Part shown: positions 9,001-12,000 of the stretch, piece after piece | How the letters are laid out: each line of letters begins with the position of its first letter | How positions within the stretch are numbered: position 1 is the first letter of the stretch | IMG/VR virus record: IMGVR_UViG_2874945390_000002 | Span: 1-40,023 of that record | Reading direction: 5' to 3' (one strand) | DNA: 40,023 nt | From: a virus | Lineage: Duplodnaviria; Heunggongvirae; Uroviricota; Caudoviricetes | Made by a program: the position numbers

Positions 9001-12000
9001 GATCTGTCTGGGTTAAGCCGCTGCGTTGGATTACTGTCTGTAGATTTTTTAAGCGAATATCTTTGATTTCCATGCTTGCCTCATTGTTAGCCAAATGCTT
9101 TATAGCGTATTGCTGCATTGTGATCTCATGTGTTAATGTTAGCACGTTGCTAATAACCAATACAGTACGGGGTTTTTATGTCCAGTGGATTGCTCTCAAT
9201 CAGAGGTGTCATGAGCGCGGATGAATGGAGGAGGCTAGCACAGTTTTCTGGGACTAGCGTTGCATACCTGAATCAGATGGCTCTGGGTTTTAGGCGCCCC
9301 TCAGTTGCAATGGCTGAAAGAATTGAGGAGGCGGTATCTAAAGTGTCACCAACCCTCAAATTATCTAAAGAGAGCCTTATTTTTTCTCCATTACGGAAAA
9401 CAAATAGTGAGGTGTGACATGTCACAGCAGTCAACCGTAATGCCAGAGCGCTACTTCCAGAAGCTGCTGTCATGCAGCATCTGGTACGACCCGATCAGCT
9501 GAGTTTATAACCTCATAACGAAGCGGGAAGAGTAAGCCATGCAACAGGATTTAGTCAGGGTTGAAATGCCAGCATTTTATAGCCAAGTAGACACAGAGTG
9601 GATTCAGCAGCAGTTACAGGGGGTACCACCGTCACTGAGACGGAAGGTCGCCCTGAAATATGCGGAGGTATACGAAATCACTTTTGACGCTGAGCCTGTT
9701 TCATTCCGCAAGGAGAACAGAGCAAGGCATGAAGCAAACACAAGGCTTCGCCTGTTCGTGAGAAATCAGGGCAGGGCTTTACAGGGGTATACAACTCAGC
9801 CGCCTCTGGCAGGAACGCAATCGCGCTCCTGATTGGTACCGGGCTTAAAGGTGTCCGGTGGCTGATTGAAAATGGTAAAAATATTTAGACGTCTATATGT
9901 CTGGATGTGTTTACCACCCCCTAAATGTTTATGGGGGAAAGGGGGCGGTGTTGATCTTTTAGCGCGAAGCGCTGGAACAGGCTTTTCCAAGAAGACGGGT
10001 ACATAGGTTAGGTAGATCTCTGTAAAGGGGAAATACCAGAAGATGTCCAGACGCCTAGACGTCCAGATGTAAATGTTCAGAGGTGATTTTATGGTTAACA
10101 GTTTTGATGGTGAAAAATGGCTTCCGGTTCCTGTTGCTCCGTATGGTGATGCTTACCTCGTTAGCTCGGCGGGACGCATCCGTGGGGTTAATCGAATTGC
10201 TGAATCGGAATTTTTTATTCGCCAAATTCGTGGCGTGTTCCTCAAGGGAAGAGTGCGCCGGGATGGATATAAAACCGTTAACCTGAGCTACAAACGTAAT
10301 CGCCAAACTTTTGCCGTACACCGTCTGGTAGCGCTGGCTTTTTGCAGCAACCCTTACAACCACCCTGAAGTGAACCATAAGGACGGCAACAAGCTGAATA
10401 ACCATGCATCCAATCTGGAGTGGGTTAGCCATAGCGAAAACATTCAGCATTCTATTCACACCGGGCTGAATAATTCTCAGGGGGCGAACAACAAACAATT
10501 TAAGGGCCTGATTGTCGCCACAAATATTGCGACCAGGGAAGAGCAAACCTTTTGCGGGAAAAAGGCGCTAATTAGTGCCGGGTTTGATCACGGTAGTGTT
10601 TATGCTGTTATTGCTGGAAGAACAAAGTCTCATCGCGGTCACCATTTCAGGCGCCTCCCGCTGAACCATGGGGAGGCAGCACAATGCAGCTGACAATCAC
10701 GCCGAATTTTGCACAGGAACGGGCGTTAAACATGTTGCGCCGTGACTGGAAGGCAAACGACACCTTCATGGTGTACTCGCCAACCGGTAGCGGTAAAACG
10801 GGTCTGGCCGCCTTCATAGTTGCTGGTTTTGTCAGCCATGGTATGCGCGTTCTGTTCTGTGTTCCGTACACCATCCTGATTGGTCAGACGGCTAATCGGT
10901 TCGTGCAGTATGGTTTACCTGGAGATGAAATCGGTTATATCTGGGCGGATCACCCGAACTACGATCCGGACCGGAAAATTCAGATTGCCAGCGCTGACAC
11001 GCTTATTCGTCGTGTTTTTCCTGAAAATATCGATCTGCTGATTATCGACGAAGCGCACCTGCGTAAAAAACGCATCCTGAAGGATATCGAACGTCTGCGC
11101 GGCAAAGGCGTAAAGGTGATTGGCCTGTCGGGTACTCCGTTTTCCCCGTTCCTGGGCAAATACTATGACCGACTGATTAAGCCGACCACAATCGGCGAGT
11201 TAATCCAGCGTGGCGATCTGAGTAAATACGAATTTTACGCGCCAACTAAGCCGGATCTGAAAGGTGTTAAAACCACATCTTCGCTTGAGTACGGCCGCGA
11301 TTACAACGAAACACAGCTGGCTGAAATCATGTGCGGATCTACGCTGGTGGGCGACATCGTACAGAACTGGTTGGAGAATGGCCGGGATCTACCTACCATC
11401 GCTTTCTGCGTCAACGTAGCTCACGCCAATTATCTGACAATCCAGTTTAACCTGGCGGGTGTTAACGCTGAGGTAATGACCGCCGACACTCCGGTAGATG
11501 AGCGCCAGACCATCATTCACCGCTTTGAAATCGGTGCAACGAAAATCATCGTTAGCGTGGGCGTTCTGGTGGCCGGCTTCGATAGTGACGTTCGTTGCAT
11601 CATCTACGCCAGGCCAACAAAAAGCGAAATTCGCTGGTTGCAGGCGCTCGGGCGTGGCCTGCGCACCGCACCGGGTAAAGAGTCCTGCCTCATCTTCGAT
11701 CACAGCGGCACCGTGCACCGTCTGGGTTATCCGGATTCAATCGAGTACGACGATCTTCCCGGCAAGTCTGATGGCATGGAGGAAAGCGTGCGCCGCGCAG
11801 CTGAGGAACGGGCCGAAAAGCTCCCGCATGAGTGCTCTCAGTGCCATTACATGAAACCTGCAGGCGTGTACGTCTGTCCGAAATGCGGACATAAGCCGTT
11901 GGCAGGTGAAGACGTCGACACAGACACCGGGCGCAAACTTAAAAAATTGGGTAAAAACCAGCTTCAGCCCACAAAGGCACAGAAACAAGCCTGGTGGAGT

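Follow-up and report, generated by a model that had tools for sequence, protein, structure and literature searches.

A stretch of 40,023 nucleotides (nt) from a virus of the Caudoviricetes (IMG/VR record IMGVR_UViG_2874945390_000002, positions 1 to 40,023; hereafter the window) carries a cluster of short repeats and palindromes directly upstream of a helicase-primase module, in an intergenic gap of ~260 bp (9833-10090) between a 97-amino-acid (aa) open reading frame (ORF) and a NUMOD4-HNH ORF. What such a cluster does at this place is the question addressed here. A first reading made from the window's sequence without database searches (the sequence-only reading) had offered two answers: an array of iterons marking a replication origin or regulatory site, or the recognition site of the adjacent HNH endonuclease. 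Comparison with known operators and with related loci points elsewhere, as the repeat clusters are probably operators for the host methionine repressor MetJ, bracketing a replication control element that host holo-repressors would gate.

MetJ is a ribbon-helix-helix repressor with S-adenosylmethionine (SAM) as co-repressor. The optimal met box is AGACGTCT, and MetJ binds such boxes in tandem (PMC3413123); functional boxes usually lie within ~75 bp of a translation start, and a survey of 122 non-symbiont Enterobacteriales reports MetJ in every one (PMC3228920). Scored with the published MetJ information matrix and its thresholds (PMC3228920 Table 3; 3.1 bits per box and an array total of at least one consensus box, 12.58 bits), the gap contains two arrays of four tandem boxes, ~160 bp apart (Table 1). 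Boxes score 6.1, 12.6, 8.6 and 4.5 bits in the left array (total 31.7), which includes one perfect AGACGTCT box at 9887-9894, and 9.0, 7.8, 10.4 and 5.1 bits in the right array (total 32.2), so all eight (4.5-12.6 bits) exceed the per-box threshold. Under the same matrix, the native metJ/metB operator of Escherichia coli MG1655 reaches 31.2 bits with four boxes and that of metF 24.9 bits, also with four, and the best array in 300 dinucleotide-preserving shuffles of the 40-kb window reaches 18.9 bits. Three other arrays in the window lie barely above the 12.58-bit threshold (12.6-13.9 bits). By manual count, 21 of the first 25 bases of the right array match the MG1655 metJ/metB operator AGATGTCCAGATGTATTGACGTCCA, and the 11-nt run AGATGTCCAGA is common to this array and the metB operator; a second 11-nt run, CGTCTAAACGG, is common to the metF operator and the array of a related locus (L016). 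The right array stops 8 nt short of the first replication-operon gene's Shine-Dalgarno sequence, and MetJ is available in the host (metJ, b3938, is annotated in MG1655). At the level of sequence, then, the arrays have the consensus units, the adjacent boxes in 8-bp register and the host MetJ gene that mark a MetJ operator.

The repeats from which the sequence-only reading started are present, and they are noncoding, as it had stated: three copies of AGACG(T/C)C (AGACGTC at 9887-9893 and 10057-10063, AGACGCC at 10049-10055), two of GTCCAGA (10045-10051 and 10061-10067) and the inverted near-copy TCTGGAT (9900-9906). It overlooked their 8-bp periodicity and that the left cluster is a full four-unit array. 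As single motifs these repeats show no enrichment across the window (AGACGYC, 9 observed and 7.45 expected; GTCCAGA, 2 observed and 4.09 expected); as period-8 tandem arrays they are highly non-random.

Related loci show that the arrangement is widespread. A pattern from the conserved centre of the gap, TTAGNNCGAAGNNCTGGAAC, matched at least 119 IMG/VR contigs as well as genomes of Salmonella, Citrobacter, Enterobacter, Kluyvera, Chania and another enterobacterium, and searches with the helicase and the 97-aa protein yielded 160 further loci. Wherever a locus has enough flank, the element is found between the 97-aa gene and the helicase and primase genes, except for two deletion remnants. These remnants (IMG/VR contigs L253 and L256, 2780-3400) retain the 97-aa gene and a complete element of the variant that we call type Q, have lost helicase and primase, and continue into a terminase small-subunit gene. 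The earlier suggestion of an origin or regulatory site thus holds in so far as a conserved cis-acting region tied to helicase and primase occupies the same place in >200 related loci; the iterons that it was to contain do not hold.

The flanks of the element are conserved not in sequence but in kind. Loci with the window's hairpin, CGCGAAGCG, have met-box arrays on both sides in 5 of 6 cases, and in 71 of 72 complete loci of a Klebsiella type an array lies on the right alone. By contrast, all 43 loci with the TGCGAAGCA hairpin (phi467/Fels-1 type) have on both flanks, above threshold, 18-mers resembling GTACTAGTTAACTAGTAC, the 18-bp operator consensus of the tryptophan repressor TrpR (GTACTAG-N4-CTAGTAC, with G(T/C)ACT half-sites). 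In representatives of this type, whose sites lie at -57 to -67 and +90 to +94 relative to the TTAG of the core, 13-16 of 18 positions match, and the native MG1655 sites match at 17 (trp, GAACTAGTTAACTAGTAC), 15 (aroH, GTACTAGAGAACTAGTGC) and 14 (trpR, GTACTCTTTAGCGAGTAC) of 18. The paired TrpR-type sites are spaced 147-158 bp centre to centre. Two sets of distinct phage sites, 49 and 54 in number, vary freely at the centre but hardly at all in GTAC...GTAC, as native operators do; a symmetric profile of this kind would be expected of a dimer-binding site. No locus mixes met and trp sites, and the 78 loci found via the PHROG 852 protein all have one operator type or the other. One Chania locus (L144) has a hairpin variant typical of TrpR-type loci, yet met boxes on both sides. 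In all variants the right operator lies just 5' of the first replication gene, at the usual distance of met boxes. Of 24 met-box arrays of at least 20 bits in 2.16 Mb of DNA from related phages, 22 are inside this element, and hardly any strong site of either kind falls elsewhere; apparent TrpR-like exceptions are nearly all in element variants missed by the anchor pattern. Two further variants, types Q and R (seen in the helicase relatives L152, 1700-2510, and L270, 2760-3200), have neither the small ORF nor the hairpin; they carry sites of the TrpR type on either flank and, just 5' of the helicase gene, the conserved palindrome TTCCTGGAA. Type Q also has a structured-looking leader of ~230 nt with a 19-codon mini-ORF.

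The exchange between the two operator types is cassette-like. The window and phi467 are ~94-95% identical in DNA over the 97-aa gene, helicase, primase and beyond, and differ over the segment 9866-10683, which comprises left operator, centre, right operator and small ORF. Two further phages, M8 and EC9682, resemble phi467: with ~95% identity in helicase and primase DNA, all three lack the AGACG repeats and have TrpR-type palindromes at the same positions. Host MetJ and TrpR are suggested as ligands because the operator type changes while helicase, primase and the 97-aa gene remain ~94-95% identical. Being near-identical between the window and phi467, these three proteins cannot set operator specificity, and neither can the small ORF, since the same operator type occurs with different small ORFs or none; the mosaic comparison therefore rules out a phage specificity partner inside the replication module. 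The sequence match to MetJ and TrpR operators, its positional conservation, the cassette-like swap and the lack of a covarying phage gene in the module are directly established, and the simplest reading of them would be that host MetJ and TrpR themselves are the ligands. Immunity operators were considered and rejected: no AGACGYC copies lie between the repressor and cro genes of the window, and relatives whose repressor genes differ still have the TrpR-type palindromes.

From this pattern we infer binding, the direction of its effect and its target, promoter or origin. With methionine and SAM plentiful, rows of MetJ dimers would coat both flanks, the right row ending 8 nt before the ribosome-binding site, and this occupancy would keep the activity of the element down, be it transcription entering or starting before the HNH-helicase-primase-Q genes or the firing of an origin in the core. 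When SAM falls, MetJ would leave and the block would be lifted. Sister phages would run the same device with TrpR, a tryptophan-activated repressor. The device seems to depend on an amino-acid-responsive host repressor being bound rather than on partnership with a specific phage protein.

Several points weigh against MetJ and TrpR gating. The target of repression is its weak point, as no convincing sigma-70 promoter is found in the element on either strand; the best conserved promoter candidate (+ strand, TTTCCA-N17/18-TTA(G/A)GT) is weak and, although most types have it, is missing from L016 and the Klebsiella type. The logic is not obviously adaptive, with replication genes repressed amid plentiful amino acids. 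The two-sided layout is not essential, since Klebsiella-type elements lack the left operator. Independent events are few, a handful of operator or hairpin switches, because related loci share ancestry. The ligand may also be a phage-encoded protein with MetJ-like or TrpR-like specificity from outside the module.

The control element between the arrays, ~130 bp long, has a conserved centre composed of a G-tract, a hairpin with invariant CGAAG, CTGGAACAGGCTTTTCCAA and GGTTAGGTAGATC. The G-tract occurs in 78 of 78 scored loci, with at least two G-runs in every variant and a much longer, quadruplex-prone tract of up to six runs in type Q. A GATC lies just left of the core (9953-9956) and another inside it (10015-10018). 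The palindrome AGCGCgaaGCGCT is exactly where the sequence-only reading had placed it (9961-9973), within the C-GAA-G hairpin; its CCCCC-N11-GGGGG inverted repeat also exists, one base to the right of the claimed 9916-9936, and has comparable counterparts in only three relatives (L098, L084 and L144). Stems of the C-GAA-G hairpin vary as GCGC/GCGC, GTGC/GCAC and GCCC/GGGC. In the alignment 100% of cells are paired and two pairs are changed on both sides (C-G to U-A and G-C to C-G), and the hairpin is well supported, though the covariation amounts to just two or three evolutionary events. It is the sole consensus structure that RNAalifold finds on either strand among 24 representatives, and a larger structured RNA across the core was dropped on this basis. 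A long-range stem between the flanking inverted repeats was likewise dropped, as the palindromes keep half-site sequence and not pairing. Rfam returned nothing within 9400-10400 at E ≤ 10 and, for the whole window at gathering thresholds, two tRNAs only. A short frame at 9947-9962 (GTG TTG ATC TTT TAG) has the conserved TAG of TTAG as its stop and a phi467-type counterpart (GTG CCC GTG TGT TAG); it is not kept in the Klebsiella type and is probably a coincidence.

Whether this centre is a promoter or an origin bears on what the operators would do. We lean towards cis-repression of the replication and Q operon over a gated origin, which would make the centre a promoter that is unconventional or depends on an activator. 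A promoter and terminator tool gave one minus-strand candidate, within the HNH gene, and no intrinsic terminator. Position weight matrix candidates (among them leftward TTTCCC-17-TAACCT in the window and TTTCCA-18-TACAGT in the Klebsiella type) had low scores and inconsistent positions, and none was accepted; resemblances to sigma-54, ops, Chi, DnaA and IHF sites, judged by eye, were rejected as too weak.

It is possible, though unlikely, that the core is instead a replication origin, with MetJ or TrpR on its flanks limiting or licensing firing and not repressing transcription. The element lies directly 5' of the helicase and primase genes in every relative, its G-tract and hairpin blocks are near-identical to those of the Klebsiella type even where the helicase gene aligns at only 68% DNA identity (L006), and no canonical promoter was found in it. 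Further points in its favour are the conserved GATC sites within or beside the core, the confinement of G-runs to the + (non-template) strand, an invariant CGAAG loop motif on a covarying stem, and TGGAA/TTCCA inverted motifs of the core that recur just 5' of the helicase gene in variants without the small ORF. The hairpin resembles the unusually stable DNA mini-hairpin d(GCGAAGC) and, like the G-runs and the GATC sites, would suit a transcription-primed origin of the R-loop type. During rightward transcription an R-loop or unwound state would be promoted by the G-richness of the non-template strand and by the stable hairpin, and helicase and primase would be loaded there; this R-loop idea is, however, pure conjecture. 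The sequence offers no long AT-rich unwinding element, the 40-bp minimum of the region being 30% GC in a single stretch that overlaps the left operator, and no iterons that covary with a phage protein. There is also no good match to DnaA or IHF sites by eye, no formal scan having been made; the hairpin is absent from types Q and R; and single-strand folding energies of the core are unexceptional (z = -0.33 for the + strand and -1.94 for the - strand).

Cis-repression by the host repressors also has to be set against explanations that give the repeats another purpose. Repressor titration by multicopy operators is a known phenomenon, and the arrays could be decoys with no role in cis: the eight met boxes of an amplifying phage genome, or the two trp operators in relatives, would titrate the scarce repressor and derepress methionine or tryptophan synthesis of the host to the benefit of phage production. 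The native strength of the sites would suit this, as would an extra array near the terminase gene of one Klebsiella-type phage. We consider it improbable, since decoys need no fixed position, yet the sites hold theirs relative to the core and the start codon in all variants, and strong sites are almost confined to this one locus. The extra array (GGACGTCT GGACGTCT AAATGCCT; L114, 8804-8827; 25.3 bits) is intergenic, ~200 nt 5' of a terminase small-subunit-like gene and 8 kb from the replication element.

That the repeats are iterons for a phage-encoded initiator, marking the origin, fits their clustering beside the helicase and primase genes and around a conserved core, but is very improbable given a period of 8 bp, which is not the helical repeat, a match to MetJ operators as good as that of genuine met operators, the replacement of the repeats by TrpR palindromes where helicase, primase and 97-aa genes are ~95% identical in DNA, the same repeats with different or absent small ORFs, and no further copies near the window's immunity region. 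The absence of the repeats from relatives with the same helicase and primase is an outcome that the sequence-only reading had itself named as refuting its proposal. Least credible is a recognition or homing site of the NUMOD4-HNH endonuclease: NUMOD4 is a DNA-binding module, and the HNH gene and both arrays are exchanged together between the window and phi467, but tandem 8-mers on both flanks are unlike the usual homing site, and the arrays also adjoin ORFs that lack the HNH domain (91-aa NUMOD4-only ORFs, 71 loci) or are unrelated (a 124-aa ORF in L118 and L122).

The ORF at this position is an accessory, variable member of the cassette, as relatives have a truncated, an unrelated or no ORF there. 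It is full length (~200 aa) in the window, L098 and L084, and truncated to 117 aa in L016; the 91-aa NUMOD4-only ORF (for example, L006, 3646-3921) is the common Klebsiella-type form. Phages of the phi467/Fels-1 type have a 122-aa ORF instead, and TrpR sites occur with this ORF or with none. The 122-aa ORF has no Pfam or PDB match, and an impression of a PD-(D/E)xK-like motif in it was set aside as unsupported.

Compared with the operators of the E. coli met regulon (metJ/metB, metF, metA, metC and others), the phage arrays likewise consist of tandem 8-bp AGACGTCT-like units in the range of two to five, lie near a translation start, have equal or higher bit scores and contain 11-nt runs identical to metB and metF. 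They differ in lying in a prophage before DNA-replication genes rather than before methionine genes, and in forming two arrays around a core that is not promoter-like, with no overlapping sigma-70 promoter recognised. The sites of the relatives are 18-bp palindromes as in the native TrpR operators (trpEDCBA, aroH and trpR) and match the consensus about as well (13-16 of 18 against 14-17), but they are paired over ~150 bp and are not centred on a recognisable -10/-35 as in Ptrp and ParoH. A host repressor beside a phage or plasmid DNA-transaction site has precedents. In lambda, LexA controls pO, the oop promoter, at the same map position as the element described here, between cII and the replication genes; an ArgR box lies in the accessory region of ColE1 cer, ArgR being, like MetJ and TrpR, an amino-acid repressor. 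Unlike in these systems, two unrelated repressors are interchangeable here at the same positions, and no antisense RNA or recombination site is demonstrated. Iteron origins (lambda ori in O, the ori and crr octamers of P4, where the type I iteron is an octamer, and plasmid iterons) also have short repeats beside replication genes. Iterons, however, covary with their initiator and follow helical phasing, whereas the phage repeats match a host operator and change type without a change of replication protein.

Phage sites for host transcription factors are known, for example LexA and Fur boxes. In the literature searched (full text, including exact sequence strings), we found no amino-acid-repressor operators at a phage replication module and no report of modular exchange between MetJ and TrpR operators, and none of the deposited phage records annotates the region. 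MetJ and TrpR are structurally unrelated yet have sites at the same two positions of near-identical modules, which argues for selection on occupancy by host nutrient repressors. More speculatively, and with considerable doubt, we propose a modular nutrient gate on the replication and Q operon of enterobacterial lambdoid phages, in which MetJ-SAM or TrpR-tryptophan would clamp a cI-independent element (an unconventional promoter or an R-loop-type origin) and falling SAM or tryptophan would release helicase, primase and Q. If true, phage replication, and possibly SOS-independent induction, would be coupled to amino-acid starvation of the host, and prophage replication genes would join the MetJ and TrpR regulons. 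In E. coli, Klebsiella, Salmonella (Fels-1 of strain LT2 being one case) and relatives, phage development would be linked directly to the amino-acid status of the host, and a widespread conserved non-coding element would be explained.

Table 1. Predicted and annotated features around the replication control element, in window coordinates.
Feature	Position	Strand	Details
Repressor gene	8618-9160	-	
cro-like helix-turn-helix gene	9178-9417		
97-aa ORF, PHROG 852, function unknown	9539-9832	+	phrog_852, E = 1e-38; directly 5' of control element
Hairpin ACCGGGC-TTAAAGGT-GTCCGGT	9838-9859	+	Just 3' of the 97-aa stop codon; conserved loop, covarying stem
Left MetJ operator (predicted)	9879-9910	strand-neutral	Four tandem met boxes, AAATATTT AGACGTCT ATATGTCT GGATGTGT; 31.7 bits
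CCCCC-N11-GGGGG inverted repeat	9917-9937	.	Extended form ACCACCCCCT/AGGGGGCGGT, 9913-9949
G-tract GGGGGAAAGGGGGCGG	9933-9948	+	Identical in Klebsiella-type relatives
Conserved core TTAG-hairpin-CTGGAACAGGCTTTTCCAAG...GGTTAGGTAGATCTCTGTAA	9957-10027	.	Alignments with relatives
Hairpin TTAGCGC-GAA-GCGCTGG	9959-9975	+	C-GAA-G loop motif; includes palindrome 9961-9973
Right MetJ operator (predicted)	10041-10072	strand-neutral	Four tandem met boxes, AGATGTCC AGACGCCT AGACGTCC AGATGTAA; 32.2 bits
NUMOD4 + HNH endonuclease ORF	10091-10693	+	NUMOD4 E = 4.8e-9, HNH_3 E = 1e-8; PHROG HNH endonuclease families
Superfamily 2 (SF2; DEAD/ResIII) helicase, 552 aa	10684-12342	+	Domain and PHROG matches
Primase, 322 aa (zinc ribbon, DUF7146, Toprim)	12344-13312	+	Domain and PHROG matches
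285-aa ORF, function unknown	13312-14169	+	
Antiterminator Q	14169-14984	+	

The window is a lambdoid E. coli prophage interrupted by insertion sequences, and E. coli chromosomes match the region at 98-99% identity. Two mechanically called ORFs overlap the intergenic gap (9866-10006 on the + strand and 9796-9990 on the - strand), across which relatives show indels or wholesale sequence replacement. The NUMOD4-HNH gene likely starts at ATG 10091, after the Shine-Dalgarno sequence GAGGTG (10080-10085), the mechanical ORF beginning at 10073. The 97-aa gene is linked to the element, which lies downstream of it in all 78 usable loci retrieved with the PHROG 852 protein. Its product has no Pfam family above threshold and no PDB relative, and an AlphaFold model with three helices (pLDDT 63) is of low confidence and uninformative.

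The hairpin just 3' of the 97-aa gene (9838-9859) has 31 distinct variants among relatives; around a conserved 8-nt loop, TTAAAGGN, they form stems that are mostly of 7 bp, TTCGGGT/ACCCGAA, GCAGGC/GCCTGT and GTCGGTC/GACCGAC among them. G:T wobbles are confined to the + strand and so point to an RNA hairpin in rightward transcripts. A boxA-like sequence, CGCTCCTGA, precedes this hairpin, which could be a nutR/boxB-type site; no second stemmed copy of TTAAAGGT is found in the window, the left operon included. Two copies of a hairpin with the loop TTAAAGGN are seen in L152 (~2060-2130).

Farther from the element, two neighbouring tRNA genes lie 3' of Q (16192-16260, 31.3 bits, and 16265-16338, 46.6 bits, in Rfam). 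ORFs of 100 and 272 aa occur together twice (3409-4565 and 5719-6875), in a stretch 99.5% identical to unannotated stretches of Stx2a phages. A 448-aa ORF likewise occurs twice, in inverted orientation (22616-23962 on the - strand and 30514-31860 on the + strand), and the pair brackets part of the tail region; these ORF pairs of identical length indicate duplicated insertion sequences within the prophage.

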